NCBI RefSeq assembly: GCF_037042905.1
Contig: NC_087251.1
Location: 22,198,001-22,262,000 of the forward strand
Direction: 5' to 3'
Source of the DNA: Lytechinus pictus
Lineage: Eukaryota
Length of the DNA stretch: 64,000 nucleotides
Shown here: positions 3,972 through 59,744 of the stretch, piece by piece
Position numbering within the stretch: the first letter of the stretch is position 1
How the letters are laid out: the number at the start of each line of letters is the position of its first letter
Translations under genes and position numbers: made by a program
The notes under the pieces: model-generated
Seen by the model: only the letters and a program-made list of their open reading frames with translations
Databases searched by the model: none
Told to the model about the DNA's origin: nothing

Positions 3972-3992
3972 ATTAGTTACTTTCCTACTTAC

Positions 3993-14030: not shown

Positions 14031-14330
14031 GGGATGATGATTTGAATAGACATAATGAATGAAAGAATGGGGAATGGGATATTCCGGGGGATATTGGGGA
14101 CCCATTGGGAACAATGGGTCTTGGCTAGCGCCTGGGCATAAATGTCATACTGGCACTCGGCTGGCATCCCTTGAAGAAATTTATCCTGTCCGGCCTGGAT
14201 TTGGTAGTCGTGATGTGTTACTGTGTTTCCATATCTTAGCGGGCCGGGATTTCTGTGTGTGTGTGTATTTGAGTTTTGTCAGACGCGTATCAATCAGATA
14301 TGATTATTTACGTCTGGGACCGACCTTTAA

Positions 14331-14913: not shown

Positions 14914-15056
14914 TTAACGTCACAGGGACGTCACCATCCGAAAGACGTGATCAGGGCTCGAACCTCTGCATCAATTTTCAACTTCCCCACAGCTTGGATT
15001 ACAGGCGCACGCCACAACGCCCAGTCTGTCTTTGCATCATTCCCTTTTATTTACTT

Positions 15057-34488: not shown

Positions 34489-34592
34489 CATCAAAAGACT
34501 GTTTTGCTCTGGCAACTAATTCTTCTGGTGGGTAACTACCAAGTTCTCCCCTTGCATGCTTTGTCTTGCAATAGGTGCATTGGTTTAGGCAG
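34489..34592 (-). CDS. CDKAL1: CDKAL1 coding exon 5 ([21 protein letters not shown]...; radical SAM CxxxCxxC)
   Basis: caccag| acceptor and G|gtaag donor; 104 nt. Confidence 0.96.
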
Positions 34593-34860
34593 CTGGTGGA
34601 ATAAAGGAAAACAAAACATGAAATCAATCCAAAACTACCAGAAATATCCATGACAAACAGAGATATTGCTGTCCTGAATGAGAGCCTTACATGAGTGGAT
34701 TTCAAACTGCAAAGACTGCAAAGCATTCCCAGTTTGACGAGTAATGAATAGAAGAAAAACAAAAATAAGAGTAAGAAACCACAAGAGCAATATTTTATTT
34801 TTCTATCTCCATCATCCTTGTAACATTATACAGCAGTAAGCCTACAGGCAATAGTAATAA

Positions 34861-34990
34861 TAATATTGACCGCCTTTAATTTTCGGGAGATACACATTAT
34901 ATTTCCCTCAAATTGCCCTCGTCAAGACTCGGGCAATGAGACTACTTCAGGTAATATAAATGATATCTCCCTCAAAGCCAGTCAATATTA
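34861..34990. mobile_element. Small (~130 bp) inverted-repeat element
   Basis: TAATATTGACCGCCTTT..GGGAGATA / TATCTCCC..AAAGCCAGTCAATATTA. Confidence 0.5.
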
Positions 34991-35108
34991 TATAAAGATC
35001 AGCAGGGTTCCATTGCATAAAGCTTAGTGATTGATTATATAGTTGATTTCATCATTGACTGTACATATCATAAATACAATCTATAAAACATCTAAGATCA
35101 ATTATTAA

Positions 35109-35494
35109 AGGTAAAATACAGTAGTTGCAGCAAACAATTATTTCATGAGAAAGTCTTTTAAATCATGGTTAATTGTCAAATATTATCAAACATCTAGATC
35201 TGGTACACTAATGTAAACTTATCTTTGTAAAATCATAAAATCTTAGCCCCGATAATGCTGATGATCACCAACACAGAAAAGCATATGTGGGACAGTGTAT
35301 TAATATTGCTTCGCAAAATACTTGACATTTGATGGAAATCTGTGCTTATTTAGCTAATTTCTCAGCAATTACACATTTTCTTCCAGAGCTTTTTGATACA
35401 TGTTTATTTTAAATACATACAAACACTTTGTTTTAATTTCATTGGATTCTGTTCAAACTCATTTTGAGATCGTTGCCACAACTGGTATTTATCT
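35109..35494. mobile_element. Kolobok-like MITE (TTAA TSD), second family, copy 1
   Basis: TTAA|AGGTAAA..CAGTAGTTGCAG...ACTGGTATTTATCT|TTAA; homologous to 41619-42013 and to the split copy at 44096-63666. Confidence 0.8.
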
Positions 35495-35532
35495 TTAAGC
35501 TTTGTTATGGAACCCTTGTGTTCAGTACTTAC

Positions 35533-35653
35533 CCTGTATTTATTGCGAGGATTTCTACCAGCGGATTTCTCCTTATCTTTGGCAGGTCCAGACTAGCCCC
35601 ACCAATCTTCTTTCCTTCCTTCTTCTTCTGGCCAAACAATCTCACTGTATTCC
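35533..35653 (-). CDS. CDKAL1: CDKAL1 coding exon 4 ([11 protein letters not shown]...[20 protein letters not shown])
   Basis: ttacag| acceptor and GG|gtaag donor; 121 nt. Confidence 0.96.
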
Positions 35654-35661
35654 CTGTAATA

Positions 35662-36911
35662 AACAAGGCAAACGCCAAGCGTTGTCTCGCCTGCATATTG
35701 CAGTCATGAAGAGACTGCATGTCAAAACTATGCTATATGACTTAGAAGATGGACCTCTGTTACGAGTTTGGCGATCCCACCTCGAAGCTATAGAAAGTTA
35801 TTGTGTGTACAACACAGCACAGTGCCAGTCATGGAAAGTTCATTGACCTTTGATCTTATTCAAATTCAACTCATATTCGAACTTGACCTGTGCCTTCAGG
35901 AGATGGACCTCTGGTATGAATTTGGTGATCCCACCTCGAAGCTATAGAAAGTTATTGTGTGTACAACATAGCACAGTGCCAGTCATGGAAAGTTCATTGA
36001 CCTTATTCAAGTTCGGCTCACATTTGAACTTGACCCGCACCTTCAAGAGATGGACCTCTTGTATGAATTTGGCAATCTCACCTCGAAGCTATAGAAAGTT
36101 CATTGACCTTTGACCTTAATCAAATTCAACTCACATTCGAACTTGACCTGCACCTTCAAGAGATGGACCTCTGGTATGAATTTGGTGATCCCACCTCGAA
36201 GCTATAGAAAGATATTGTGTGTACAACACAGCACAGTGCCAGTCATGGAAAGTTCATTGACCTTTGACCTTATTCACATTCGACTCATATTCGAACTTGA
36301 CCTGTGCCTTCAGGAGATGGACCTCCGTTATGAATTTGGTGATCTCACCTTGAAGCTATAGAAAGTTATTGTGTGTACAACACAGCACAGTGCCAGTCAT
36401 AGAAAGTTCATTGACCTTTGACCTTACTCAAATTCAACTCACATTCGAACTTGACCTGCACCTTCAAGAGATGGACCTATGGTATGAATTTGGTGATCCC
36501 ACCTCGAAGCTATAGAAAGTTATTGTGTGTACAACACAGCACAGTGCCAGTCATGGAAAGTTCATTGACCTTTGACCTTATTCACATTCGACTCATATTC
36601 GAACTTGACCTGTGCCTTCAGGAGATGGACCTCTGGTATGAATTTGGCGATCTCACCTCGAAGCTATAGAAAGTTATTGTTTGTACAACACAGCACAGTG
36701 CCAGTCATGAAAAGTTCATTGACCTTTGACCTTATTAAAATTCGACTCATATTCGAACTTGACCTGTGCCTTCAGGAGATGGACCTCTGGTATGAATTTG
36801 GTGATCCCACTTCGAAGCTATAGAAAGTTATAGGGTGTACAACACAATTGTTGACGACGCCGACGCCGGAAATAGTGATACCTATGTCTCGCTCCGCTAC
36901 GCAGGCGAGAC
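35662..36911 (-). mobile_element. HINE/DINE-1-like element of a second subfamily, with ~7 x 154-bp internal tandem repeats
   Basis: SubTIR GTCTCGCCTGC at 35684; terminal hairpin GTCTCGCTCCGCTACGCAGGCGAGAC; GACGCC microsatellite; 154-bp period (repeated ORFs at 36110, 36418, 36572). Confidence 0.8.
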
Positions 36912-37440
36912 AATAAAACTGTGAGGGTTGGGATCACGGAAAGGAACTTAAGGTTAGCTTAAAGATAAGGTTTTGAGTTTGGCTTAATAGGCATATTTTT
37001 CATTGCAGCAATTCTGACTGGATCACATTATATAAAATCTTGATGCTTGACAATAGGAATGCTCTTCCATCAGCATTTAGATTGATTTAGTCTTTGCATG
37101 CTGATTTAATTCAGAGTGGATAACATTGATATATGTTCTTCTGACACTTTCACAGAATTCTGTTTTCCTCAGTGCACCAATGAATGCTTTGTTGAGAGGC
37201 ATTTTCTAGTATCTTCCTTATAAACAGATGTGAAGTGCCTATCTTGAGGAAACGAAAGAAGAAAAGACATTCAAAACAAATCTCATCTAAGTTATCAGTT
37301 GAGAGCTGTGAAAGATATCAGTTTACTATAGAAATCAAATTACTTGGTTCTCTGCAAGATAAACTGAAGTCACACAATCATCAAAGTTTAATTGAAGTGA
37401 CTTTTGATGAGCATGTCAGAATGAAATTGGAATACTTCAC

Positions 37441-37671
37441 CCTTTATGGTCTCTTCGACAACTTCCACCACCCTGTCGATTTGTTGCACACCAATGACAC
37501 TGACCCCTTGAATGTATTTAGCTCTTGGCTGGGCCTGAGGTACACAGCCAGCTAGAACCAGAGCTTTGCCCTGCTGCTGTGCTTTCTGGATTTCATTCCT
37601 GAAATGATCTTCAGCCGGGTTCTTCACTGTACAGCTGTTGAGCAGCCAGACATCAGCTCCAGTTGAATCAT
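37441..37671 (-). CDS. CDKAL1: CDKAL1 coding exon 3 ([24 protein letters not shown]...AGCVPQAQP...VEETIK)
   Basis: taacag| acceptor and G|gtgaag donor; 231 nt. Confidence 0.96.
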
Positions 37672-37714
37672 CTGTTAATTGGTGTAAGAAAAGAAGCATC
37701 CATTTGCAGGCATT

Positions 37715-37918
37715 ATCTACACTATTATCATCACTATCATCATTGCAACCACATCATCATCATCATCATAATCATCATCACCACCACCACCACCACCACC
37801 ACCATCATCGTGCCACCGTCACCATAACCGTGCCACAATCACCACCATCCTTATCTGCCATTGTCATCATCACCATTATCATCATAAATATCATCAACAT
37901 CATCCACACCATAATCAT
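37715..37918. repeat. (CAT/CAC)n trinucleotide low-complexity tract
   Basis: Runs of CATCAT/CACCAC; the source of the spurious poly-His ORF. Confidence 0.9.
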
Positions 37919-38056
37919 GGTTTGTTTTTTTTTGTCTTTTGACATTTTTTCCCAAAGTATAAAATGTGAAATTCAAAATCAAACCACAATAGATTCTTTA
38001 TTTTACTCTTCTATTGAGATGTGAAATGGTCTGATTGTGATATACCTGGGACTTAC

Positions 38057-38169
38057 CAGTAATTGAATACCCATAGTTTGCAAGCTGACCTGCCATATAC
38101 TCTCCATCAGAGCTATTGTGTGAGCAACCCCATGTCTTCACAAAGATTTTTTGGGTTCCTGGAATAATG
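38057..38169 (-). CDS. CDKAL1: CDKAL1 coding exon 2 ([38 protein letters not shown])
   Basis: tttcag| acceptor and G|gtaagt donor; 113 nt; TWGCSHN motif. Confidence 0.97.
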
Positions 38170-38457
38170 CTGAAACAAATTAACAGGAACAATAGAATAC
38201 ACATAGAAATAGAATACAAATTCTCCAATGTAAAATAAATTAGAGTTCATGTATTGTAAAGTGTGTAGTCAGTATTTTCCATGTCAAAATATTTAGTACA
38301 TTAAATTGAGGTATGAAGATGTAAACTACGTATAGCCATACCTGAAAGAAAATATAAGTTTTCAAGGCCAATAAACATTTTTTGTACAGGTATGAGCATT
38401 TTTATATAAACTGCACAAGTAGGCAAGAGCTCTCATGAAATTTGAATTTGTGATATA

Positions 38458-39277
38458 CAGTGCTTCCCAGAAAAAACGAAACCGAGATTTAGCTATGATT
38501 TATCATAACTTAATCACAAATATAATAGACAAATGACCTACCAATGTAAAGCTTAGAATCTCCTCTTTCATCTGATATTACTTAGATTATTCCTCATTCA
38601 CGCATGAGGGAGCAAAAACAATTTGAAGAAAGGATACCAAAAACTCATTTGGCGGGGGGTATCTGAATTTTAAAAAGAAAATCACATGCTCAAAAAGTTC
38701 AATATCTGCTCTTTAATTTGATACCTTAATCACAAAAAATGGTCAAGAAGTAAAAAAGTTACGTTCCCTCGAAACAATGCTTGTATTTCCATAATTTCAT
38801 TAAATAAACGTTTTTTCACCGGTTTCCCACAGAAGCTGTCGCATGGTTAACAAAAGACTTCATGCATGGCTGATCGTCAACAAAACGGAGTGTCGAGTGA
38901 GTTTGAACGCTAGCCTGTAAAACCTCTTAATTTTATGAAATTATTGAAATTCAAGCCTTATTTCAAATAACCAGAACTTTCTTATTTCTTGACCATTTTC
39001 TGTAATTGAGGTATCAAATTAAAGAGCAGATATTGAACTTTTTAGAAATGTGGTTTTCTTTTTGAAACCCAGATACAGCCTGCCAAATGACTTTTTGGTA
39101 TTCCCTCTTCAAATTGTTTTTGCTCACTCATGCGTGAATGAGAAGTAATCTAAGTAATTTCAGATGAAAGAGGAGATTCTAAGCTTTACAATGGTAGGTC
39201 ATTTGTCTATTGTATTTGTGATTAAGTTATGATAAATCATCAATAAATCTCCGTTTCGTTTTTTGTGGGACGCACTG
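38458..39277. mobile_element. Tc1/mariner-like MITE with long TIRs and TA TSD
   Basis: TA|CAGTGC.TCCCA...TGGGACGCACTG|TA; inverted arms of roughly 290 bp. Confidence 0.85.
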
Positions 39278-40020
39278 TATATTGCAACTACAAACAGGAT
39301 TATTTTTATCAAACCTTTTGCTCCGAATTAAGGTCTTTCTTTGTTTCAGGTTTTTCAAAGCTGTACAAATCTTATGTTAAAAAGAGTTGCTAGACCCTAA
39401 GGCTCTGTTTGACTTTTTCCCAACTCTACTGTTTAAATGAGAGGTACTGAACATGTAAGTAGCAGAAAACAAGGAGTTTGGAAATTGTTTAATGGGGATC
39501 AACTTTTATTAATTTTACGCTGGTGATAATGGAATATACCCAAATGTAAAGCCCTAAAATAACTTTGTACTGTACACTGAAGTTTACATTATTTACGTGA
39601 AATGATTAAATGTCAGACAGAATAATTTTTTTTTTTATTTTGAGGGGCCTTGCCCTTTCTTAAATGGATATGCTCCAAAATTAAAAAAAAATTGTTCTCT
39701 CTGAGAGTTATTAATTTCAGATTTTCAGTGAAACTTATACACACCTATGGGTTGAAACTTACTTGTACTCATCAAACAAGGATCCCCAAAATCTAACTTA
39801 AGCATGCATATCGTAAAGAACTTGTGATTTTGGTAACTTTGGTATTGGCTACCATGGTAACAGGACCTAGCAGCCAATAAGAATCAAGTTATCCATTAGA
39901 ATTTCATAATGGCAACGTTTTAGGGTTTTTTAATGAAACGGGCCCCCATGCTGTAACAAAGGGCACACACACTCCAACCAAACTTGAGACTCAATTTAAA
40001 TTAAGAAAATTTGGCAATAC

Positions 40021-40184
40021 CTGTCTGCTCTGATATCTTCCTCTTTTTTCCTTCTGTCTTTCTTTCTATTCATCACTTTGGGCATTACATCCTGTTTGTT
40101 TGCAAATCTTTCCTTTGGTGTGACATCTCCAGCTGATATGATGTCTTCAATATCATCAATCCCAACTTCACAAGCAGATGGCAT
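40021..40184 (-). CDS. CDKAL1: CDKAL1 first coding exon (MPSACEVGIDDIEDIIS...VMPKV...EDIRAD)
   Basis: ATG at 40184 just after acceptor cctag| (40192-40193); AG|gtatt donor; MPSxC..DDIEDI N-terminus as in vertebrate CDKAL1. Confidence 0.93.
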
Positions 40185-41618: not shown

Positions 41619-42013
41619 AGAGAAATTCCACTAGTTGCAGTAAACACTGATTTCATGAGAAAGTCTGTAAAACCAGGCTTAATTGTCAGTATATCATCGA
41701 GGATCTAGATCTGGTACAGTTACATAAACTGAACTTTGTGAAATCTTGAAATCTACGCTGAAAAATGTTCAGACTGAACTTCCCCAACACAGATAAGCGC
41801 ACGTGGGACAGTGTATAATTATTGCTTTGAGCGTCGGGCCCGACACTCTACCCGAATCCTGTGCTTATTTGCTGATTTCTCAGCAATTACACAATTTCTT
41901 CCAGAATCCTTTGGCACATGCGTTTTATTTATACAAACAGACACTTTGGTGGTCATTTCATTGGATTCTGTACGAACTCATTTTGAAATCGTTACCAAAA
42001 CTAGCATTTACCT
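41619..42013. mobile_element. Kolobok-like MITE (TTAA TSD), second family, copy 2
   Basis: TTAA at 41615-41618 and 42014-42017; homologous to 35109-35494. Confidence 0.8.
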
Positions 42014-43244
42014 TTAAGTTTGGATAAACGTTTGGATAAACCAGGGAACTGGGAGTTGCGCGACAGCCAAAGTAAGTCACTGTTTTTTTTCCTTTTATTT
42101 TTCCCCCGTTTTGGTGCATTTCAGGCCTAAACGGAATAGAGTAATCTTTATTTTGGTCCAGTTCTTTTTATATATTTTTTAAATCAAATTAAGACAGTCG
42201 GGGGGATTTTGCATTTGTTAACCCCGGAATGGTAATTTTAAGGTAAGATTCGTGATATTTGTCGGCCAATGCAAGTATTTTTTTCATCTAAGTTAGCACT
42301 GCTCATGATATTGTCGCGTCTTGTTGTAGCTGGGCTACGATAACAAAGACGGCAAGATGGCTTTGGGCTCAAAACCCTAAAGAAAACAAGTATTTTGGAG
42401 CAACATTATTGTTGCCAAAATACTCTGTGCATGTAGAACAATCGCATCTCGTACCTGGCTCTGTGGAGATTAAGCACGTCAGTGATATGACATTAATCTC
42501 CAGGAGCCTCCTCCTGGTTATGCCAGCTGTCTTGGTCTAACTTTACTGCAGCCCAAACACAGTACTTAGCCTAAATAACAGTTAGAGTTAGACATCTAAC
42601 TTGTTACTAAGTATATTTTACTAACGTTAAATACCGGTAGTTGAGCCGAATGAGAATCCCAGAGGCTAATGTCTATCAATATCTGGATGTAATACAGTGC
42701 AGGACCGTTAGGTAAAATGCACCGGGTTAGGAGAGGGCACAAATGAGTTTAGTTGAAACGAAGGTGGCTTACTTCGATCTTGGCTTTAAACACCTCTGGT
42801 GATCCTAGTACTGCTGACAACTTCGTTAGGGAGTTGATTCCCGGCCAACGTTGCATTCACAAAAAGAGAGTTTTTGAACTGCTTTGTGTTACTATGTCTT
42901 CATTGAGTTATTTGTTACTTGTCTTTCTACCATATTTGTTGCATCAAAGTTTACAAATTTCTTAGCTTTGATATTACATTTACTGATTTAGGTCTTGCTT
43001 TAATTAGAAATTTATCAACAGGAAGGGCAGAAACCAACCCCTTGACCACTTTGAAGTAGGATGGAAGTTTCAGGACTTGGCGTCTTGAGCAGTTGAGGCA
43101 AGAGTAGGCAGGTTGAGATTGATAGAAATGCATGCAAATGGAGAAAAACCAAATGAGGGAGTCTCACTCTCACGAGTCTCATGAGTCAAAAAAAAAAAAA
43201 ATGACTGTCTTCGAGAGTTGGCAGCCCTACCTGGCTAAAATTAA

Positions 43245-44006: not shown

Positions 44007-45111
44007 CTCCGCGGGCCGTAACCCAGGGAGCTCCCTGGGTTAGGTACCATGCTTACGGTACCGTTGCCCCGGGGACCTCGACACAACGTCTTTAAATAAA
44101 GCTAAATAAATGACAGTAGTTGCAGTAAAATACTGATTTTGTGAGAAAGTCTGTAAAACCAAGGTTCAGTATTACTATATCATCGTGGATCTAGATCTGG
44201 TACAGTTACATAAACTGAACTTTGTGAAATCATAATATCTAAGCTAAACAAGTGGAACGCCTCTGGCAGTCTCGCCTGCATTACGCGATTTAATATAGCA
44301 GCAGTGCTAACTTTGAAAACTACTATAAAATAATCATTCACAAAAACACCATTCATATAATGACATAATACCACATTCATTGACCATAGATGACATTTGA
44401 ACGGTGACTTAAGACTTGTCAACTACACCCATGTCCACATTTCATTCACTCTATCCATAAACTTTCAAAGTTAATGATTGGCAATTCAACAATTACCCCA
44501 ACATGGCCTAAGTTTATTGACCTTAACTGACCTTTGACCTTGGTTTTGTGACCTGAAACTCACAGGGGATGTTCAGTGATACTTGATTAATCTTATATCC
44601 CAAGTTTTATGAAATAGATCCATAAACTTCATAGTTAGGATGGTAATTCAACAAATACCCCCAACACGGCCAAAGTTCATTGACCTTAACTGACCTTTGA
44701 CCATGGTCATGTGACCTGAAACTCGTACAGGATGTTCAGTGATACTCGATTACTCTTATGTCCAAGTTTTATGAACTAGATCCATAAACCTTCAGAGTTA
44801 GGATGGTAATTTAACAAAGACCCCCAACACAGCCAAAGTTCATTCACCTTAAATGACCATTGACCATGGTCATGTGACCTGAAACTTGCACAGGATATTC
44901 AGTGGTACTTGATTAACCTAATGTCCAAGTTTCATGGACTAGGTCCATATACTTTTTCTAAGTTATGATGTCATTTCAAAAACTTAACCTTCGGTTAAGA
45001 ATAGATTTTGAAAATAATTCTCCCAACATACATGGTCTAAGTTCATTGACCCTAAATGACCTTTGACCTTAGTCATGTGACCTGAAACTCAGGCAGGATG
45101 TTTAGTAATAG

Positions 45112-45351
45112 TAGGATGGGGGGTCGGGTGTCCGGACACTTTAATATTTTGAAGCCTTCTTTTTTGTATTTGGATTACACTAAAAATATGAATTCAATAC
45201 TTGTAATCATCTTCTATTTTGTTCTTTATAATATTTCCTAACATTTTGTACTAAAAATTTATGAAACTTCGCTTGTAAATTTTTCCAAATGACTTTCTAA
45301 AATTGATCGTCCGGACACACAACCTGTCCGGACACACAACAACTGGGTATA
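45112..45351. repeat. ~240-bp interspersed repeat copy 2, inserted in HINE B
   Basis: Highly similar to 15057-15297; interrupts the HINE core unit. Confidence 0.8.
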
Positions 45352-45523
45352 CTTCATACCTTATGTCCAAGTTTCATGAACTAGGTCCATATACTTTCTA
45401 AGTTATGATATCATTTCAAAAACTTAACCTTAGTTAGGTTAAGATTTGATGTTGACGCCGCCGTCGGAAAAGCGGCGCCTATAACTCATTATAAGGCTAT
45501 AGTCTCGCTCTGCTATGGCTATG

Positions 45524-46408
45524 CCACTCCTAGTAACAATGAGGTCCAAACATTACATGTATGGACCTCATAGGCGACATCACTAGTATTTTTGGTTAGA
45601 AATCTCTGAGAACAGGATATTTCTATATTATATCACAAGTACAAGCTATATTCCTTTCTCTTATTTAAATTATAATTTTATAGTGTAAATGCATCGTTAG
45701 CAACAACAAAAAATGAAAGAAATGAAGGGGAACTTACATTTTCACGGCTTTTTCCTGATTTTCTGGGCAGTTGCTCTTCACTTCTGACTCGCGATCGAAG
45801 CTGATATGAAGATCACGTGATTCGCGTTCTCGTCAGCTGATCGGTTGATTATTCTTTTTGTCAGACGTTAATAATATATATTTTATAATGCTAGCATTCA
45901 TCGCTAATTTAGGTGAAAGAGATTGAAGTTAAACAGGGCCAGGTCGGAATCATAATTATTTTGGAAGAGTGTATTTATACACTCGATCTCATACCTGACG
46001 TAGACGGTACTATTCAACAAATGCACAATCTTCAATATAAAAAATAAAACAGAAAGAACGCCTTGAACACAGGCCAAAATGCCTAACGATTTCTCCGCGG
46101 CATTAACAACTATCGTAAAGGGCGCTCCATTTATTAATAAAGATGGACGTATAGCCGTCTATGGCGACAAAATTTGCCGCAAATATTTACGAAGAATTGT
46201 GAGAAATGGTCTGAAAATGCAACAAAAGAACCGGTGAGTACCGATTAAACATTATCAATTTATTTAATAGAACATACCGTATTTTATGACTAGAGTTTAA
46301 CAATTTCTAGATAATATTGCTTAGTTCTAAGCTAGGGCGGCCCAAATGCGCGTGAGTGGAGTCCCAGTTTATTAACGCGGGTAAGTATTGGGGTGTCGCC
46401 TAGAGTGG
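45524..46408. mobile_element. 885-bp TIR element with 6-bp TSD inserted in the HINE B terminal hairpin
   Basis: Termini CCACTC..TAGGCGACA / TGTCGCCTAGAGTGG; GCTATG at 45518-45523 and 46409-46414. Confidence 0.7.
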
Positions 46409-47009
46409 GCTATGCAGGCGAGACAAAAACGTTCACACTGAATATCACCAACACAGATAGGCACACATGGGACAGTGTATTATTATTGCTGGAATAAAGA
46501 CCCGACGCCGACGGAAGTGACAGAATCCGCGCATATTTCTCAGCAATTAATTACACAATTTCTTCCAGAATCCTTTGGCACATATTTTTTATTCATACAA
46601 ACAGACACTTTGGTGATCATTATATTAAGGTAATCCTGGGTTTTAGGGGCGTAAAATATCTGTATACATTACCGGCCTCTAACTTCAGCAAATCATCCCA
46701 GCATAGTATGGACGGCTAAAAGGGCAAATATTCAAATATGATTGAGCTGTTTTCATCATTTTTGTCTCGCATGTTATAGCTGGATCTTTTCTTGAAACTT
46801 TGGCATTAGGGCAATCAAGTTTCACTGACCGAGTAGAAGGTCACATGATCAAGGTCAAAGGTCATTTAGGGTGAAAATTTTAACAAATAATTGTATTTTC
46901 CCCAAGAAATTTCAATGTAAGGGTAATTGAGTTTTACTTTTTAATATCAACTTATTGCTGGTCACCTGAACAAGGTCAAAGGTCATCTTAATTCGAGGGG
47001 ATTTGGCTT

Positions 47010-49790
47010 GAAAGGGGGAGGGGGTTCTTCAAAGTACCCTACATTTTAGTGGAAAGGGGATCAAATTGGCCTTTATATATATTGCACCTACTGGGTTTGA
47101 GGGGTATAAATTATGTTTTGGCTTAAGGAGGGGGGGGGGGGTACTTCCAAGAACTCTACATTTCAGTGGAGAGGGATCAAATTGGCCTGTATTATATTAC
47201 CTAATTGTACCTACTGGGTTTTAGGGGCATAAACTATTTTCTGGCTTGAGGGGGGGGGGGGTACTTCCAAGAACCCTACATTTAATTGGAGAGGGGATGA
47301 AATTGGCCTATATATATTACCGTATTGTACCTACTGGGTTTTAGGGGCATAAACTATTTTTTGGCTTGAGGGGGGGGGGTACTTCTAAGAACCAAACATT
47401 TAATTGGAGAGGGGATAAAATTGGCCTATATATATTCCCGTAATGTACCTACTGGGTTTTAGGGGCATAAACTATTTTTTGGCTTGAGGGGGGGGGGTAT
47501 ACTTCCAAGAACCCTACATTAAATTGGAGAGGGGATGAAATTGGCCTATATATATTACCGTATTGTACCTACTGGGTTTTAGGGGCATAAACTATTTTGG
47601 GGATTTGAAGGGGGGGTACTTCCAAGAACCCAACATTTAATTGGAAAGGGGATGAAATTGGCCTATATATATTACCATATTGTACCTACTGGGTTTTAGG
47701 GGCATAAACTATTTTTTGGCTTGAGGGGGGGGGGGGTTCTTCCAAGAACGCTACATTTAATTGGAGAGGGGATGAAATTGGCCTATATATATTACCGTAT
47801 TGTACCTACTGGGTTTTAGGGGCATAAACTATTTTTTGGCTTGAGGGGGGGGGGAAGGTACTTCCAAGAACCCTACATTTGAGTGGAGAGGGGATGAAAT
47901 TGGCCAATATATATTGCACCTTCTGGGTTTTAGGGGTATAAACTATTTTTTTGCTTGAGGGGGGGGGGTACTTCCAAGAACCAAACATTTAATTCGAGAG
48001 GGGATGAAATTGGCCTATATATATATTGCACCTACTGGGTTTTAAGGGTATGAACTATTTTCTGGGCCTGAGGGGGGGGGGGTACTTCCTAGAACCCTAC
48101 ATTTAATTGGAGAGGGAATGAAATTGGCCTATATATATTACCGTATTGTACCTACTGGGTTTTAGGGGCATAAACTATTTTAGGGACTTGAATGGGGGGG
48201 GGGGGGGGGTACTTCCAAGAACCCTACATTCAATTGGAGAGGGGATGAAATTGGCCTATATATATTACCGTATTGTACCTACTGGGTTTTAGGGGCATAA
48301 ACTATTTTTGGCTTGAGGGGGGCCGGGGGTACTTCCAAGAACCAAACATTTAATTGGAGAGGGGATGAAATTGGCCTATATATATTACCGTATTGTACCT
48401 ACTGGGTTTTAGGGGCATAAACTATTTTTTGGCTTGAGGGGGGGGGGGGGGGGAAGGTACTTCCAAGAACCCTACATTTGAGTGGAGAGGGGATGAAATT
48501 GGCCAATATATATTGCACCTTCTGGGTTTTAGGGGTATAAACTATTTTTTTGCTTGAGGGGGGGGGGTACTTCCAAGAACCAAACATTTAATTCGAGAGG
48601 GGATGAAATTGGCCTATATATATATTGCACCTACTGGGTTTTAAGGGTATGAACTATTTTCTGGGCCTGAGGGGGGGGGTACTTCCTAGAACCCTACATT
48701 TAATTGGAGAGGGAATGAAATTGGCCTATATATATTACCGTATTGTACCTACTGGGTTTTAGGGGCATAAACTATTTTAGGGACTTGAATGGGGGGGGGG
48801 GTACTTCCAAGAACCCTACATTCAATTGGAGAGGGGATGAAATTGGCCTATATATATTACCGTATTGTACCTACTGGGTTTTAGGGGCATAAACTATTTT
48901 TGGCTTGAGGGGGGCCGGGGGTACTTCCAAGAACCAAACATTTAATTGGAGAGGGGATGAAATTGGCCTATATATATTACCGTATTGTACCTACTGGGTT
49001 TTAGGGGCATAAACTATTTTTTGGCTTGAAGGGGGGGGGGGTTCTTCCAAGAACGCTACATTTAATTGGAGAGGGGATGAAATTGGCCTATATATATTAC
49101 CGTATTGTACCTACTGGGTTTTAGGGGCATAAACTATTTTTTGGCTTGAGGGGGGGGGGGGTACTTCCAAGAACCCTACATTTAATTGGAAAGGGGATGA
49201 AATTGGCCTATATATATTACCGTATTGTACCTACTGGGTTTTAGGGGCATAAACTATTTTAGGGATTTGAAGGGGGGGGGGGTACTTCCAAGAACCCAAC
49301 ATTTAATTGGAAAGGGGATGAAATTGGCCTATATATATTACCATATTGTACCTACTGGGTTTTAGGGGCATAAACTATTTTTTGGCTTGAGGGGGGGGGG
49401 GGGATTCTTCCAAGAACGCTACATTTAATTGGAGAGGGGATGAAATTGGCCTATATATATTACCGTATTGTACCTACTGGGTTTTAGGGGCATAAACTAT
49501 TTTTTGGCTTGAGGGGGGAGGTACTTCCAAGAACCCTACATTTGAGTGGAGAGGGGATGAAATTGGCCTATATATATTGCACCTACTGGGTTTTAGGGGT
49601 ATAAACTATTTTTTGGCTTGAGGGGGGGGGGGTACTTCAAAGAACCAAACATTTAATTCGAGAGGGGATGAAATTGGCCTATATATATTACCGTATTGTA
49701 CCTACTGGGTTTTAGGGGCATAAACTATTTTTTGGCTTGAGGGGGGGGGGGTACTTCCAAGAACCCAACATTTAATTGGAGAGGAGATAA
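47010..49790 (+). repeat. ~120-bp tandem satellite, left arm (~23 units)
   Basis: Unit AAATTGGCCTATATATATTACCGTATTGTACCTACTGGGTTTTAGGGGCATAAACTATTTTTTGGCTTGA(G)nTACTTCCAAGAACCCTACATTTAATTGGAGAGGGGATG. Confidence 0.97.
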
Positions 49791-49964
49791 AATTTCCTAT
49801 TAAACAGCCTGAAAACATAAATAATACAGCTCTTCTAATGTTTTCTATGTTGATGAATTCATTTATGACAGTAATTTTCCATTTTAACCAATGCCTTAAT
49901 CAGAATTACTGGCTCAATGCACTAATTAACATCTATGTGCAATATATCAAGTATATATTCCTAT

Positions 49965-50235
49965 GACCGGTGTGTTGGCTCAGTTGGTAGAGCGTCCGTC
50001 TCACAACCGGGAGGTCGGGGGTTCAAACCCCGCCCGCGTCAGACCAAAAGACGTTAAAGATGGGAGTTGCTGCTACCCTGTTTGACGTTCAATGATTAAA
50101 GGGATAGAACCTCGTCAATCTGGTGCTGCACAGCGGCCGCCGGGCCCATGATCAATTGGGCATAGCAAATTTTCGGACTATTTCATTTCATGTCTATTTC
50201 GAACAATAAATTATGGATTTTCATTTTTTTTCATT
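49965..50235 (+). mobile_element. tRNA-derived SINE
   Basis: Box A TGGCTCAGTTGG and box B GGTTCAAACCC in a tRNA-like head (49965-50040); then body ACCAAAAGACGTTAAAGATGGGAG..., AATAAA and a (TTTCA)-like tail; acceptor stem imperfect. Confidence 0.8.
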
Positions 50236-50339
50236 TGTTCTATGTTAGTTTTATCGAGTGCGCCTGAAAAACATGAAAAATATATCACTAACATATGGTT
50301 AGTGGTAATTAAAATACAGGTGCAATACATATATTTCGT

Positions 50340-51220
50340 TGTCTCTGTATTTATATAGGCGCTGCTTTTCCGACGGCGGCGGCGACGGCAGCGTCGTCAA
50401 CATTGATATATAAAATAAGCAATGCCAATGTCATCATAACTTAGAAAGTATATGAACCTAGTTCATGAAACTGGGACATAAAAGTAATCAAGTATTACTG
50501 AACATCTTGCCTTAGTTTCAGGTCACATGACTAAGATCAATGGTCATTTAGGGCCAATGAACTAAGATCTTGTTGGGGGAATACATATCGAAATCTTAAC
50601 CAAGGATAAGTTTTTAAAATGTTGTCATAACCTAGAAAGTATATGGACCTAGTTCATTAAACTTAAACATAAAGGTAATCAAGTCATACTGAATACCCTG
50701 TCTTAGTTTCAGGTCACATGACCTAGGTCAAAGGTCACTTAGCGTCAATGAACTTTGACCATGCTGGGGGTATTTATGGAATTGTCATAACTTTAAAAGT
50801 TTATGGATCCACATGTAGTTAATGAAACTTGGACATAAGTGCAACCAGGGAAGTCCTGGTGCAACCATGTAGGCCGATCCCTGTATATCCTGTGCGCATG
50901 TCAGGTCAATTAAATGACCAAGATCAAAGGTAATGTAAGGTCAATGAACTTTGGCCATGTTGGGGGTATTTTTTAACTTGGCATCATATCTTAGAAAGTT
51001 TATGGATCTAGTTCATGAAACATAAACATATGGGTAATCAAGGATTGTTTTGCACACATGTTAGGTCACTTGATCATGGTCAAAGGCCATTTTGGATCGA
51101 TGGACATCATATGAATTCTTCTTACGTGAATATTTTATGCAATAGCTGTTTTCAAAGTCAAAACTGCTGCTATATCAAATCGCGTAATGCAGGCGAGACT
51201 GCCAGAGGCGATCCACTTTG
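50340..51220 (+). mobile_element. HINE/DINE-1-like element D (degenerate 5' end)
   Basis: GCTTTTCCGACGGCGGCGGCG, GGTCAAAGGTCA core units, 3' end ATGCAGGCGAGACTGCCAGAGGCGATCCAC. Confidence 0.75.
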
Positions 51221-51563
51221 ATTAGCTCATTATGTCAATCATTAAGCTAATTTTACAACATTAACATTGTTTAAATGAAATACGATATCATAAATGAATT
51301 CCTCGTCATAGAAAACTATGAAATAGCTGTATTATTTATGTTTTAGGGCATTTTTAAAATATAAAATGACAAAGGAATATATATTCATATGTAATTATAT
51401 TGGTAATTATGTTAATTAGCGCAGTATACTGATTGTGCTAATTACACAATAACATTTGTTTAACGGGGAAAATAATGTCACAAAAGAATTCTTCATCAAA
51501 GAAAACCATAGGATAGCTGTAATTGTTTATGTTTTCAGGCTTTCTCAATATAAAATGACAAAG

Positions 51564-51597
<34 letters not shown>

Positions 51598-52488
51598 CAG
51601 ATATATGTTAATTAGCGCATTATGCTAATTATACTAATTACGACAATTACATTGGTAAAAAGGGGGAAAATAATGTCAGAAATTAATTCCTCGTCATAGA
51701 AAACCATGGGATAGCTGTATTATTCATGTATTCGGACATTTTCGATATAAAATGACAAAAGAATGTATATATTGCACATATATGGTAATTAGCGCATTAT
51801 GCTAATTATGCTAATTACGACAATTACATTGGTAAGAAGGGAAAATAATGTCATAAATTAATTCCTCGCCATATAAAACTAGCTTAGGGTACATGTAGCT
51901 GTATTAATCATGTTTGCGGACATTCTCGATATGAAATGACAAAGAAATATATATTTTTATATGTATTACACATATACATATATATATATTAATTAGTGCA
52001 TTATGCTAATTATGTTAATTACAGCAATTTCATTGGTTAAAATTGAAAAATATGGTCATAAATGAATTCCTCGCTATAGAAAAACCCTTAAAGGGATGCA
52101 TTGTCTACGTATTGGGCATTTTTTGGATAGACATCCACAAATATACATATTGCACTTCAATGCTAATTAGCTCATTATGCTAATTGGGATTATTACGATA
52201 ATTGCATAACTTAAATATTTAAATTATTGCTTTAAATCGATTCCTCGTCACGGGACCTCTTAGTAAAATTACATTTTTTAAAAAATCTTTCTGGTTTAAG
52301 AGAAGTAGCATATTACATATCGTAATATGCTAATTAGATGATTATGCTAATTAGGCTAATAAAAATTGCTCAAGGTTACCAAGGTGGCAACCAAGCTGAA
52401 TTTACTTCAATACCCATCTAGAACACAAATCAACAAAAAAACCTTGTACTTAACAACTTTTCCAGTTTTGAAAAATTTCTACTGGACT
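51221..52488. repeat. Diverged AT-rich tandem repeats (roughly 180-200-bp spacing) ending in a TAGTCCAG (reverse) terminus; remnant of another long-TIR DNA transposon
   Basis: Repeated AATTAGCGCATTATGCTAATT..AATTCCTCGTCATAGAAAAC..ATAGCTGTATT; an inverted copy at ~49800-49950; ends ...CTACTGGACTA at 52489 (Academ-like TAG end is an inference). Confidence 0.55.
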
Positions 52489-52489
52489 A

Positions 52490-53840
52490 TCTCTCGTCTT
52501 TTCACATGAAAAAAACAGATGCTCGTAAGTTTCTTCAGTATTCCCACAAAACGAACATTCACTATCTGAGAAAATTTTGAATAAATGTAAATATTTCTTC
52601 GTGTATATTAATTAATAAAGCATTTTAAATTGAAAGTTTTGAAACTCTCTAAGCCTACTGCTTAGAGTACATTTTCTGGGTCTTGAAAATATAGCACAGA
52701 TATCTTTCGGAGAAATTATATGTCTTCTCTATATTATTAAACGCATACAATTTTTCCAATTTAAAGGAGAATGAAACTCTTGGAGCAAGTTAGCTTTTGT
52801 GAAAGCAGAAAAATCAAAGAATAAGATCAACAAAAGTTTGAGTAAAATAGGACTAGCAATAAAAGAGTTATGAGCATTTGAATGTCGAGATCACTAATGC
52901 TATGGAGATCCTCCCTTTGGCAATGCGACCAAGATCTGTGATGTCACACACGTACAACTCTCCAATTTGGACACTGAAAATATACCCCAAAACATCTCTT
53001 TTTGCTTATTCTAATCATATGACAAATGATTCATCAATGATATAATGTTGTGAAACCTCTGTACTTGTAATCTCATAAAGAGAACACCTCACATTGTGAT
53101 AGACTCTATAAAAGTGAGAATATAAGACTTTATAAGTGAAATAAGTACTAAAGTAATGAGGGAGTTGTACGTGTGTGACATCGCAGATCTTGGTCGCATT
53201 GCCGATATGAGGATCTACATGCCACTAGTGATCTCGTTATTCAAATGCTCATAACTTTCTTATTATTCATTCAATCTTCCTCAAACTTTCAACAATATGT
53301 TTCTTTGATTTTTCTCTTTGATGATTGATTCAGCTGGTTTCAAGGGTTTCATTGTCCTTTAATACTTAAAAAGTGCCTTGTATATTTTCTTGGATGTAAC
53401 GTTTGGTTAACTGTTAATCTTACAATTAAATATAAATTGTAGATTTAGACCAGTGTCTTCACAGTTGTCGTTTTTCTTCAAAAGGTGTTTCCATGTTGCT
53501 GGAATATTTTTTAAAACTTTGTAAACTTTATCTATTTCATTTCCATCTAACCCCATTTTCATAAAGTTTCTAGGAGATTTGATGATACTTTCCTTGTCAA
53601 CAATATGATGCAATTTATAATCTATATATTTTTAAGAAATGATTTTTCATCAAATAGCATTTGCCCGTTTAGTCCAATAAGTTTGTTGTTAAAAAATATC
53701 TCAAATGGAAAAAGGAAACGAATAGGATGAAACATTACTGAACCTTCTGGGGAAAACAAACAGTCATTATTATCAATGGCTCTTAATAGAGTGATCCGTT
53801 TCATTTGGAACAGAAGTGTAGGCTTTATGATTTCACTCAC
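52490..53840 (-). pseudogene. Degenerate 3' part of L1/Tx1-type LINE ORF2 (zf-RVT region and CCHC knuckle), interrupted by a MITE
   Basis: Minus-strand CSFCGNTEETYEHLFFSCEK at ~52557-52498; RLREFQNFQFK nearby; NIPATWK segment at 53407-53613. Confidence 0.75.
52765..53358. mobile_element. Kolobok-like MITE (TTAA TSD), copy 2 of the 14331 family
   Basis: TTAA at 52761-52764 and 53359-53362; near-identical to 14331-14913. Confidence 0.85.
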
Positions 53841-54484
53841 AATTTATGCAGGAACATGAAATCAATGTGTGCCATTGGTTGTGGTTTTTTATATCATACC
53901 TAGTTAGAACAAATAAAACATACAATGTTATCTCCAATCACTAATATAGCTCCCCCACCATTGGGCCTACATTATAAATGGGGAATAAAAATGAATAAAA
54001 CTGAATGTCATTTATATTTTCTGATATGTTTTATTTATTGTAATTATTGCATTATAAATTTTGTTGGAAAAATGAATAAATAAATAAATGAATGAATGAA
54101 ATGAAAAAGACGGATTAAGTGTAATCACTTCATTGAGTTAGATTCCATAAAAAAATGTTACTGATGGTCATCCATCCATGACACTTTCAATTCTTGTCAT
54201 AAGCAATTAATGTAAACATTTCAATATCATTCTATATTTATGCCAAATAGTATTAATGGCAAATTCTATCATTCTATATTGGCAAATAAACTGTACATAC
54301 CTGTACCTTTCTCCAATTAGGATATGGAGAGTTTTTTATCAGGGAAATGTCAACGCATAGGCATTTGGACGTGGATGGCCCAGGCTTCCTGATGCTTCAT
54401 CGATGACATCACCCCTTCAAAAATTATCACTCCATACCCCTGCATGGTTTCAGTTGTTACTCTATTATAAAAATTATCTTTTGA

Positions 54485-55475
54485 TAATTGACGACCAATA
54501 TCTTTACTCAGTATCGACTACAAAATTGCAGCTCGGGTTTTAGCGATGCGTTTACAGAAAATTTTATCATCATTAAACTGATCAATGTGGATCGGCATGC
54601 AAAAATGTTATGCTTGCTCAAGATATTATTGACTCTTAATTGTAAATTTAAAAGTTCCCGTGTCATTATTTTTTTTCAGATTTTCTAAAAGCATTCGACA
54701 ATGTGAACCACTCATTTCTGTTTAAAACATTAAAGTTTAAGGAATCGTTTATAAGTTGGACTAAGATGTTACATAAATATGCTCAAGGTAGAGTACTACA
54801 ATGCATGTGGTTGGTTATCAGAATAAAGGTGTAAGACAAGGGTGTCCATTGTCAGCATAGTGGTTTATTTTGTTTTCAGAGATTTTAGCAATTCGTATTA
54901 AAGAAAATGATAAAATCAGAGGTATAGATGTTTCAGGGTATTGTTTATGCTTACCACACAGAAAGATGAAAATAACACTGTTCGCAGACGATACGACGAT
55001 ATTCATTAATTCGATTAAATCCCTTCATAATATTATGAAAGAGCCCGGTGAAAGAGATAAATAATTCCGGTTCCAAAAGTTCCAAAGTAAATTGGAATAA
55101 GACAAACATGTTAAAAATAGGGATATTAAACTTAGAAAGATAAGAAGCGAGTTTGATTTTACCGATGATCCTGTTAAGTATTTAGGAATGTTTGTGTGGG
55201 GGGGGGGGGATGAAGAGTATGTAACGATATAATGATAAATATGAAATTTTTAATTGTGCCTCAAATCGTTTATGTTGGTACGTTTATTCCAATGCCAGAC
55301 TATGTATGCCAGGGTTTACATAAGATATGGAATTCAAAGCGTGAGAAAGTTAAACGTAATGTTTGTGTCAGACCGATAGTTGAAGGTGGTCTTGATATGA
55401 TCGATCTATATTCGAAATCAAAATCACTTATATTGTCTTGGATAAATTCCTTTTTAAAGAGGGATTTTGGGTAGA
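54485..55475 (+). pseudogene. Degenerate reverse transcriptase of an L1/Tx1-type LINE
   Basis: Frameshifted motifs RPISLLSIDYKIAARVLAMRL, DFLKAFDNVNH, KGVRQGCPLS, LFADDTTIF, KYLG, GGLDMIDL. Confidence 0.9.
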
Positions 55476-55856
55476 AATTGGCACTTAAATGGCACTTTAA
55501 AAATAGGCACTTACACGAGAAAGGGTTTTTCAGGCTCCTCCTAAGGTGAAAGGGGCATAGTACACGTTCATGATGGGACATTTTTATTGCGTAAAAAAGG
55601 GCACTTTTTCAATGCTTCATAAGATGGTGGACACTGTGCCCCTACCCCCCCCCCCCCGCATGACAGTAAAAAATCCGGCTCGCGATTTGCACTCGCATTA
55701 ATTGTTAAAACTATATTAACGCATGCATTTGATAAATACAAAAGTACACAAATCAAAAGGCCTTAATATCAACAAACTTCTTGCTCGTATTAGGCTTATT
55801 AGATTAATGAATACATAATAACATATTGATGAAATCCGAGTAATCGAATTTGCCCC

Positions 55857-56976
55857 TTTTTGTCTCACCTGCATAGCAGAGTGAGACTATAGGTGCCGCT
55901 TTTCCGACGGCGGCGGCGGCGGCGGCGGCGGCGGCGTCAACACCAAATCTTAACCTGAGGTTAAGTTTTTGAAATGACAGCATAACTTAGAAAGTATATG
56001 GACCTAGTTCATGAAACTTGGCCATAAGGTTAATCAAGTATTACTGAACATCCTGCCTGAGTTTCATGTCACATGACCATGGTCAATGGTCATTTAGGGT
56101 CAATGAACTTAGACCATGTTGGGGGAATCAACATCAAAATCTTAACCTAAGGTTAAGTTTTTGAAATGTCATCATAACTTAGAAAATATATGGACCTAGT
56201 TCATAAAACTTATACATAAGGTTAATCAAGTATCACTGAACATCCTGCATGAGTTTCACGTCACATGACCAAGGTCAAAGGTCATTTAGGGTCAATGAAC
56301 TTTGGCCGAATTGGGTGTATCTGTTGAATTACCATCATAACTTTAAAAGTTTATGGATCTGATTCATGAAACTTGGACATAATAGTAATCAAGTATTACT
56401 GAACATCCTGTGCGAGTTTCAGGTCACATGATCAAGGTCAAAGGTTATTTAGGGTCAATGAACTTTGGTCAAATTGGGGTATTTGTTGAATTACCGCCAT
56501 AACTTTTAAAGTGTGTTGGTCTAGTTCATAAAACTTGGACATAAGAGTAATCAAGTATCACTGAACATCCTGTGCGCATTTTAGGTCACATGACCAAGGT
56601 CAAAGGTCAATGAACTTTGGCCATAATGGGGGTATCTGTTGAATTACCATCATAACTTGGAAAGTTGATGGATCTTACTCTTGAAACTTGGACATAAGAG
56701 TAATCAAGTATCACTGAACATCCTGTGCGAGTTTCAGGTCACATGATCAAGTTCAAAGGTCATGTAAGGTCAATGAACTTTGGCCACATTGGGGGTATTT
56801 GTTGAATTACCATCATATTTCTATAAGTGTATGGGTCTAGTTCATAAAACGTGGAAATAAGAGTAACCAAGTATCACTGAACATCTTGTGCGAGTTATAG
56901 TAGTTTTCAAAATCAGCACTGCTGCTATATTGAATCGCGTGATGCAGGTGAGACGGCCAGAGGCATTCCACTTGTT
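55857..56976 (+). mobile_element. Intact HINE/DINE-1-like element C
   Basis: TTTTTGTCTCACCTGCATAGCAGAGTGAGAC 5' hairpin; (GGC)n; about 6 core units; 3' ATGCAGGTGAGACGGCCAGAGGCATTCCACTTGTT. Confidence 0.85.
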
Positions 56977-57060
56977 AAGAATTGGAAATCGACAAGTTTC
57001 ATCTCGCACTGAGAAAGAGGAATAGGAAGACAGTCATCATTTTTACATGGTTCCGCATAG

Positions 57061-59019
57061 CATAGGCGGATCCAGGGGGGGCTGAGGGGCCCGGCCCCCC
57101 CCCTATTGGCAGAGCAAAAAAAAAAGGAAAAAAAAGGGGAAAGAAAGAAAAAAAAGAAAAAGAGAGGACAAAAAAGGAGAAACATAAGAGGAGGAAGACG
57201 AGTGAATAAAAAAAGATGAGGGGAAGAGTTGGAAAATAATTTTAAAAGTATTTCATGTCACCATACAGTATAAAATTTTCGCTCGCGCTTCGCGCTTGCA
57301 TTGACTTTTAGGTGATTTCTATATATCTTGCTTAATACAGAGCTTAAGTATCAAATTTTGAAGTCAATATATAAAACATATTTCAGCTCGGAAATCGAAT
57401 TTTCATTATTTTATTTGATTTACAACTTGATTTTTAAAAAGTGCTCTGCAAAAATTTATGTTTTGTCTTCTGCGCACTCGCAAAATTTTATTTGTCAGAC
57501 AGAAGCGGATCCAGGGAGGCCCGAGGGATCCGCCCCCCCCCCCTATTGGCGGAGCAAAAAAGGAAAAAAAGGGGGAAAGAAAGAAAAAATAGAAAGAGAA
57601 GGGAAAAGAGAGGAGAAAAAAAGAAGAGAAACATAAGATGAGGAAGACGAGTGAATAAAATAAGAAGAGAGGAAGACCTGGAAAATAATAAAAAAACTTT
57701 CATGTAAGGATATAAAATTTTCGCTCGTGCTTCGCACTTGCATTGCCTTTGAGGTGATTTACATATCTTACGCAGTATGGAGCTTAAAATATTGAATTTT
57801 GAAGTCAATATACAAAACATATTTCAACTCAGAAATTTAACTTTCATTATTTTGTTTGATTTACAATTTTTTTTAAAACGTGCTCTGTAAAAATTTCTTG
57901 TTTTATGGTCTGAATATTAATATTTTCAGCTTGCGACGCGCTCGCAAAATTTGATTATTCAGGTACCTATTATTTTCCTGTACTCCATAAAGTTATCAAA
58001 ACTTAAGATCCCTATTCACGTCAGATTGTCAAAACGTATCGGCTAGCGCTGCATGCTCGCAATATGATTGGTGAGTACTAATTTTGAAACAAACTACTTA
58101 AAAATCCCAATTTGATGACAGTTTATCATAAATTTCGGCTCGTGATTTTCTCTCGCATTGATTGTTGAAAGATATTAACTCATGCATCTTATTCATAATT
58201 TCGAAAGTGCTTTAAAATAATGTCCACTTTTCAGGCCATAATATTATTAGATTTTGCGCTCTCATGCTTAGGAAGAGAAATAGGAAGATAGTCATCATTT
58301 TTATACGATGACATAATGTCTTTATAGAATGTCCCGGTCCTATGCCAAACTAAAAAAATGAAATATATCAGCTCTTTTAAACTGTGATCCATATCCACGA
58401 AACCTCACAATTTTCCTACAAAGTGCTTGAAATGCAGAGCTTAAATTGACCTTTTTGTCAGATCAGAATATCATATATTTTTAGCTCGGGCTTTGCGCTT
58501 GCTTTATTGATTTTCATGATAACAAAGGTATTTAGAATACCCAAATTCTAGGTCGAAATCTGAAACCCGAAATCTGAAATTCAGATACACAGGTTCTCTA
58601 TTTAAATCATTATCCAGTTTCAGATCACAATATAAAAAAACTGTCTGCTCGCGCTTTGCGCTCGCATTATTAATATAGGAAAATTTCAAGTTACTCATCC
58701 TTTTCATGATTTACAAAATATGAATAGAGTGTCAAAGTTGAGATTAAAATCTCGATTTTTTTTCAGCTCGCGCTTCGCGCTCGTATCAGTTATTTAGTTA
58801 TATACCTATCGTTTTCCATTCTTCAGGTAAAATTGTCAAAATTTTCAGCTCGCTCTTCGCACTTGATAGTTGAAATTTGTAACGTCCTCTTGGCTAAGAA
58901 GCTGCCGTTAACAGAATCTTTTTTTATCAGATCAAAGGGCATATAAAAAATTCTGCTCGCACTTAATAAGGCTTATGATATTATGTGAATATATATAGTC
59001 CTAATAGCTATATATATAC

Positions 59020-59095
<76 letters not shown>

Positions 59096-59240
59096 CTTGA
59101 TTTAGTGACTATGAGGACTATCCCTCAAAAGAAACAAAAAAAAAAATAAAAAAAAAAATTTCTTCGAGCAGCCGAACATGGATTTGGCTGAAAAAATTCC
59201 GGCCCCTCCCCCCTATTGGCGAAGGCTGGATCCGCCCCTG
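57061..59240. mobile_element. hAT-like non-autonomous element (CA..GGCGGATCCAG termini) with a duplicated left end
   Basis: CATAGGCGGATCCAG at 57061, second left end at ~57500, CTGGATCCGCCCCTG at 59226-59240; repeated GCTCGCGCTTCGCGCTCG motifs; TSD only approximate. Confidence 0.6.
59009..59093. repeat. (TA)n microsatellite
   Basis: Long TATATA run. Confidence 0.95.
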
Positions 59241-59744
59241 GTTACGCAATGTCCATAAAATGTTCAGGCCCTTGGTCTAAATAAATAATGTCAGCTCGCT
59301 CTTCGCGCTCGCATCATTTATAGAGTGTGATCCATATCCACTTCACAATTTTCCTACACAGTGCTTCAAATGGTGCTTAACTTTATGATTAAAAAAAGTG
59401 CGTAGAATATGAATTTGTTTAGTTCGAAATGTAAAACATTTTCAGCTTGCGCTGCTCGTTCGCGTTTTCCATCGTTGAAATATGGATCGTCTTATTGGCT
59501 ATCTGCAAACAGGTCCCTTTCGATCAGGCCAGAACGTACATTAAAATATTTTGCGCTCACACTGTTTGAATGGGGCGTATGAGATTATAAGGTTACAAGA
59601 ATAAAGCGAATACAAGAAGTGTCAATTACAACTACCCCTTTACCAATCGAGGAAAATATGGTTGAACAAATTTGTGCCCCCCCCCACATACTGGCAAAAG
59701 TTGGATCTGCCCCTGTACCAATGCGTCATCATGTGATTGAAAGC

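Follow-up and report, generated by a model that had tools for sequence, protein, structure and literature searches.

The TU elements of sea urchins, probably the same animal group as the host of the element described here, have a foldback build, in which tandem outer domains consist of short (~15-bp) units. In the Tc1/mariner elements Sleeping Beauty and Bari, the ends are bipartite, and the binding sites further in have no cleavage end; these IR/DR ends carry two to three sites each, compared with ~25 in the present element. Tetris, from Drosophila virilis, resembles the present element in being non-autonomous, in having a flanking and a tandem domain in each TIR, and in sharing a short stretch (37 bp at ~80% in Tetris) between the flanking domain and the unit (PMC4079207). 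Tetris differs in its inner domain, its 220-bp units, its TIRs of at most 1.7 kb and its TSDs of 8-10 bp; a Mutator assignment was suggested for it, free arrays were demonstrated, and Dias et al. proposed both additional sites for the transposase and a path leading to satellite DNA (PMC4079207). In the present element, the shared stretch is 24 bp at 92% identity and begins at base 8, the arms are 3.2-3.9 kb long, and there is no inner domain.

In Galileo-G, from Drosophila buzzatii, a site near the end likewise recurs in the tandem repeats of long TIRs, and its binding by a P-superfamily THAP enzyme was shown by footprinting and EMSA (PMC3688188). The Galileo-G site lies at +63 to +80 and is present in 2 of 4 repeats (PMC3688188), whereas the candidate site of the present element occupies bases 8-31 and recurs in ~52 units. 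Among the zebrafish elements Merlin-2_DR, Merlin-N5_DR and Merlin-1_DR are elements above 10 kb, and mirrored arrays lie near both ends, with units of 79 bp (in 12.5 and 9.7 copies) or 113 bp (in 5.2 copies each); Merlin-2_DR and Merlin-N5_DR are given with mirrored 79-bp and 113-bp arrays, and in the nematode element MERLIN2_CB the repeats begin at base 9 (PMC8101967). The passages and table of that survey that deal with array-bearing Merlins report no match between TIR and unit and no binding data (PMC8101967). Compared with these Merlins, the present element has longer arrays (~23 and 29 copies) and no transposase. The Mutator/Foldback element Tm1 of root-knot nematodes differs in its 14-bp units, its 9-bp TSD and its asymmetric end motifs, and has a MULE transposase partner (PMC3169594). 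The design is already known from fruit-fly and fish transposons, and the binding-site idea is in print for Galileo and Tetris.

Insertion boundaries and target site

The window, the whole 64,000-nucleotide stretch of Lytechinus pictus DNA that was analysed, contains at 46629-63592 a single insertion of 16,964 bp with GG...CC ends, which is almost certainly one foldback insertion. In the single copy examined, the same 8-bp TSD is found at both ends, a coincidence expected by chance at ~6e-5 given the local composition. The features at the boundaries are:

46621-46628, plus strand: left TSD copy, TATATTAA (terminus comparison)
63593-63600, plus strand: right TSD copy (terminus comparison)
46425-46620, resuming at 63601, plus strand: interspersed host repeat split by the element (paralogue alignment and loose ends of run contigs)

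Uninterrupted paralogues of the split repeat are present at ~35258-35498 and 41761-42020. When the flanks were joined with one TSD copy, the product aligned to both of the two paralogues tested and was gap-free at the junction; a target site duplication and an empty site in paralogues, the marks of a foldback insertion, are both present.

Within the window, a boundary placed one base over, with AGG ends and a 6-bp TSD, fits equally well. The GG end was favoured because two contigs from other sequencing runs (X1 record 7 and X13 record 13) start matching exactly at 46629. This comparison covered all contigs of 4 of the 23 listed runs, against 45540-47215 only, and none of the runs shared half of the query words (best, 0.40). 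In the X1 record (679 bases), 158 other letters are followed by the TIR from 46629, and the first unit is also matched; terminus and unit occur together at another site. The X1 contig joins 46782 to 47080 with unknown letters between, a junction that is not claimed as a deletion. The contigs of X7 left the TIR uncovered, which is not taken to mean that it is missing there, and contig depths do not stand for copy numbers. Contigs from X1 and X13 carry 8 extra bases at 46780, compared with both arms of the present copy, and therefore family variants of the flanking domain exist. Loose ends of run contigs at 46621 and 46627 continue in the split host repeat. The outer arms differ at 7 of 566 aligned bases, which suggests either a young insertion or arm-to-arm conversion.

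Architecture of the arms

Each arm consists of a 367-bp flanking domain and an array of 120-bp units, the modular long TIR of foldback elements. The parts of the arms are:

46629-46995, plus strand: left flanking domain of 367 bp, sharing 98.4% identity with its right counterpart (arm alignment)
63226-63592, minus strand: right flanking domain, in which the motif occupies 63562-63585 and the terminal 7 bp occupy 63586-63592 (arm alignment)
46629-46635, plus strand: outermost 7 bp of the left TIR, starting with GG, the presumed cleavage end, unrepeated in the units (TIR-unit alignment)
46636-46659, plus strand: TIR bases 8-31, the 24-bp motif common to the units and candidate transposase recognition site (TIR-unit alignment)
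46781-46986, plus strand: two decayed remnants (46781-46875, 46960-46986) of the 163-bp repeat interspersed in the window, in the flanking domain of both arms (alignment)
47002-49794, plus strand: left array, 23.5 units of 120 bp with 23 motif sites (repeat finding and motif scan)
59741-63209, minus strand: right array, ~29 (28.6) units of 120 bp with 29 motif sites, in the orientation opposite to that of the left array (repeat finding and motif scan)

From the end inward, each arm is made up of ~150 bp of terminal sequence, the pieces of the 163-bp repeat, and the array. These pieces retain 72-76% identity over ~100 bp, and up to 93% over 27 bp. No inner non-repetitive TIR domain was found, and the inner ends of the arms have no sequence in common; such a domain is not universal among foldback elements. 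The left array ends (49792-49958) against an inverted fragment of a 197-bp tandem repeat that lies at 51218-52207, 1.3 kb further in, and this fragment, judging by the sequence, points to rearrangement within the element's middle. Of the arrays (47002-49794 and 59783-63209), 10-12% consists of G-quadruplex-like windows, compared with <1% elsewhere; these windows lie on opposite strands in the two arms.

The terminal motif in the units

The terminus quoted in the initial annotation was confirmed at 46629-46659, with an inverted twin at 63562-63592. Its core had been said to occur about 50 times in mirror orientation, and indeed the 15-mer CTGGGTTTTAGGGGC gave 54 matches at ≤2 mismatches, with the strands opposite by arm. 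These matches comprise the 2 termini, 23 sites in the left array (plus strand, within 47091-49719) and 29 in the right array (minus strand, within 59761-63129), compared with a mean of 0.06 and a largest count of 1 in 100 shuffles. That each unit contains the motif holds for the consensus but not letter for letter: all 52 unit sites match the 15-mer with ≤2 mismatches, 42 of them are exact, and the longer quoted 27-mer is exact at 40 of 52. The outermost partial unit of the left arm starts past the motif position.

The best local alignment between the flanking domain and the unit matched 22 of 24 bases with a score of 38, compared with a maximum of 33 in 2000 dinucleotide shuffles. The rest of the 367-bp flanking domain showed nothing above chance against the unit (next best score 17, shuffle mean 19). 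The match covers only TIR bases 8-31, leaving the first 7 bases, including the terminal GG, unrepeated, and thus the units do not reproduce the cut end itself. A terminal site recurs in tandem repeats, as in Galileo. Each of the window's 52 unit sites falls within the transposon; outside the arrays and termini, the window holds no close copy of the motif (the nearest 24-mer has 6 mismatches, the nearest 15-mer 3), and no long unit array independent of the transposon occurs within these 64 kb. Exact-pattern scans of metagenome and viral contigs, which are uninformative for an animal repeat, returned 0 matches. Three further ideas about the unit were considered and rejected: that it is an ancient dimer built from two halves (p = 0.77-0.93), that it contains a second, inverted motif (p = 0.39), and that it matches the TIR a second time, over 10/11 bases, which was at chance level.

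The initial proposal that the satellite is an amplified array of transposase-binding sites is partly supported by these results, in that the arrays are parts of the arms of one transposon that holds every unit site, and the sole homology between terminus and unit is 24 bp, the size of a footprint. It is likely that the motif is, or was, a transposase site. This functional reading was favoured because the homology consists of 24 bp just inside the cut end, in otherwise unrelated context. The motif might instead be the site of a host protein, kept at the end and in the units. By inspection of the sequence, the motif contains TTAGGG after a G triplet and is loosely telomere-like, in that TTAGGG resembles the telomere repeat, but there is one hexamer per 120 bp, no tandem telomere repeat is present, and a position right inside the TIR is typical of transposase sites. 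A host-protein site is, on these grounds, very unlikely.

Turnover of the arrays

For the unit alignment, 50 full units were used, and the innermost site of each arm, which has no full unit after it, was omitted. The 50 units represent 33 types, and identical types are present in both arms. Mean unit divergence was 8.4% in the left arm, 5.8% in the right arm and 7.4% between arms, and the unit tree was not split by arm (11 changes, compared with 14.9 when shuffled; 12 of 500 shuffles were as low). A five-unit block is duplicated in the left array, L07-L11 being equal to L12-L16, and the duplication includes variants in which the 15-mer is broken (L08/L13 and L09/L14). The outermost units, L01 and R01, are mutual nearest relatives and lie ~8-10% from the consensus, and the G run in the units varies in length. 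The pattern is apparently that of ordinary unequal exchange acting on a shared variant pool.

Conservation of the motif

The check whether the 15-mer is the most conserved segment of the unit gave a mixed answer. The 15-mer ranked 18th among 120 windows; the full 24-mer fared better, ranking 3rd of 120. Nucleotide diversity (pi) was 0.030 in the motif and 0.083 elsewhere in the unit (column-shuffle p = 0.023). Only 7 of 61 variant alleles fell in the motif, which accounts for 24 of 110 columns (p = 0.030), and 12 spanning-tree changes mapped to the motif, compared with 83 elsewhere (p = 0.016). Subfamily-level variants were found in 0 of the 24 motif columns and in 8 of the 86 others, while a Fisher test of variable columns in the motif versus elsewhere gave p = 0.12. 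All of these p values are optimistic because the units share ancestry and are not independent.

The motif is not alone in being well kept. It is better conserved than the unit average but is equalled by a second block, beginning ATGAAATTGGCC (unit positions ~88-107; for example, window 47296-47310), which has a pi of 0.028 and 14 changes and does not overlap the motif. Outside the units, this second block is absent from the window, the terminus included. The units at the array edges drift within the motif at least as much as outside it: relative to the consensus, L01 and R01 differ at 3 of 24 motif sites, compared with 8/85 and 6/85 elsewhere. The two differences in 24 between TIR and unit are as expected without selection at 10-14% divergence (P = 0.33-0.56).

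These last figures bear on a reading in which the motif merely hitch-hiked, a piece of the TIR having been copied inward by repair and swept along by a slippage-prone, G-rich expansion, with no importance for transposition at any time. The TIR-unit difference fits neutral drift, the edge units show no constraint on the motif, and the arrays are rich in G-quadruplex-like windows with G runs of variable length. Hitch-hiking gives no account of why exactly 24 bases inside the cut end, out of 367 bp, recur, nor of the lower variation in the motif, and is considered rather unlikely.

The middle of the element

The arms enclose ~10 kb of non-coding DNA with the following features:

49795-59740, no strand assigned: non-coding middle, ~10 kb, a patchwork of host repeats with a decayed non-LTR retroelement (repeat comparison and Pfam)
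54483-55190, plus strand: relic of a reverse transcriptase (RVT_1, E = 7.1e-10), decayed and read with X in place of stops (Pfam)
52492-52635, minus strand: zf-RVT relic, E = 6.3e-06, just below the curated cut-off, on the strand opposite to the reverse-transcriptase relic (Pfam)

A six-frame comparison of 49800-59761 with Pfam revealed no transposase, and yielded only RVT_1, zf-RVT and one weak unrelated match. Neither the DDE_Tnp_IS1595 domain of Merlin, whose absence is expected for a non-autonomous copy, nor a MULE transposase was found in this search. The repeats of the middle match other repeats of the window at 70-97% identity. The element probably captured its middle, or already contained it at the time of the move, because much of it is more decayed than the arms are diverged.

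A middle resembling old host DNA, together with inner arm ends that have no sequence in common, would also suit a history in which a terminus-plus-array repeat inserted twice, independently and in opposite orientations, on either side of ordinary host DNA. Such a history is largely refuted by the common 8-bp duplication and by flanks that join into one continuous host repeat, and neither an inner TIR nor a motif was found in the middle; it is so improbable that it can practically be set aside.

Several repeats were observed in passing. The RVT_1 and zf-RVT relics may belong to one non-LTR retroelement, inverted or rearranged, and a 600-bp palindromic element (52760-53362) lies between them. 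This element and 14326-14917 are two copies, 94.7% identical, of a MITE-like element of ~600 bp with inverted arms of ~200 bp. A tRNA-Val-like sequence at 49969-50041 (plus strand), followed by an unrelated tail, is probably the head of a SINE. Adjacent copies of a ~410-bp repeat, 80% alike, occupy 57066-57472 and 57505-57912, within the middle of the element. An interspersed family with tandem units of 163/192 bp and a (CGG)n head, which we take to be Helentron-associated (HINE-like), is present at 24201-24548, 28878-29657, 44242-45483, 50354-51227 and 55857-56979, and one pair of its members is 97% alike over 696 bp.

Superfamily assignment

The element probably belongs to the Merlin superfamily, which was favoured because of the GG ends and the 8-bp TSD; Merlins are defined by terminal 5'-GG and TSDs of 8 or 9 bp (PMC8101967), and the present copy has both. 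In the same survey, Merlin TIRs span 24-462 bp, reaching 1000 bp in two zebrafish families (PMC8101967); in the present element, the unique part of the TIR is 367 bp and the whole inverted arm exceeds 3 kb.

The same structure could instead be that of a Mutator-type foldback, like Tetris and Tm1. Most foldback elements have been assigned to Mutator, and TSDs of Mutator/MULE foldbacks, while usually 9 bp (PMC3169594), are 8-10 bp in Tetris (PMC4079207). Against this assignment, the TSD at the GG boundary is 8 bp and not 9, and some published Merlin sequences begin with ggtaa or ggtaat (PMC8101967). A Mutator origin seems unlikely.

Proposed mechanism

The reading that we favour, and consider reasonably probable, is that of a non-autonomous foldback cut-and-paste transposon with bipartite TIRs and amplified inner sites, mobilised in trans, most likely by a Merlin (IS1595-type) transposase. 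Bases 1-7 of the TIR would form the cleavage end and bases 8-31 the recognition site. We infer that each arm ancestrally carried an inner copy of the recognition site at a depth of ~460 bp; the surrounding 120-bp segment would then have been multiplied by unequal exchange or slippage in each arm, with variants exchanged between arms. The units could be bound yet stay uncut because they have no GG end, so that the element would leave whole. By analogy with Galileo, the units are probably secondary binding sites, and the ~25 copies per arm would most simply be a by-product of array turnover.

It is doubtful that the high copy number was selected for synapsis. In its strongest form, this idea holds that the units are selected amplifiers of binding sites and that an element of 17 kb requires ~25 of them per arm for its ends to pair. 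Few parts of the unit are kept as well as the motif (the 24-mer ranks 3rd of 120), motif sites are oriented with mirror symmetry, and Marzo et al. suggest that extra sites offset a length penalty (PMC3688188). The copy numbers of the arms are unequal (23 vs 29), motif variants were amplified along with the rest, and conservation is not unique to the motif. Among the known systems, Galileo-G holds the site in only 2/4 repeats (PMC3688188), Dias et al. raise the possibility that transposition is disrupted by large arrays (PMC4079207), and piggyBat is inhibited by subterminal sequences (PMC11707139). Taken with these points, selected amplification is improbable, and turnover of secondary sites is preferred.

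Confirmed binding would mean that the recognition site of a probable Merlin transposase had been marked out by sequence alone. It would also offer a clear-cut way to ask whether a long element transposes better or worse when it has many extra sites, a question raised and left open in the Galileo and Tetris papers (PMC3688188, PMC4079207). As a putative route from transposon to satellite, the element would repeat what Tetris showed. It is conceivable, if hardly to be expected, that a Merlin-type family turned its recognition site into arms of ~25 uncuttable sites, which load the enzyme cooperatively and allow 17-kb elements to carry ~10 kb of captured host DNA. In that case, TIR bases 8-31, as repeated in the unit, would disclose what a Merlin transposase recognises, and the second block might be bound by another domain or by an accessory protein.

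Surrounding genes

A UPF0004/radical-SAM gene, presumably CDKAL1-like, has exons at 34450-40184 (minus strand) and an apparent start codon near 40184; the element lies ~6.4 kb upstream of this codon. A region outside the element, 45563-46255, matches long contigs of runs X7 and X15 at ~98%. On the minus strand near 45737, an ATG is followed by GTAAG, and this may be a promoter or a first exon near the insertion. Further away, an exon at 3918-4241 (minus strand), which we assume to be ninein-like, has a weak EF-hand match (E = 0.006).
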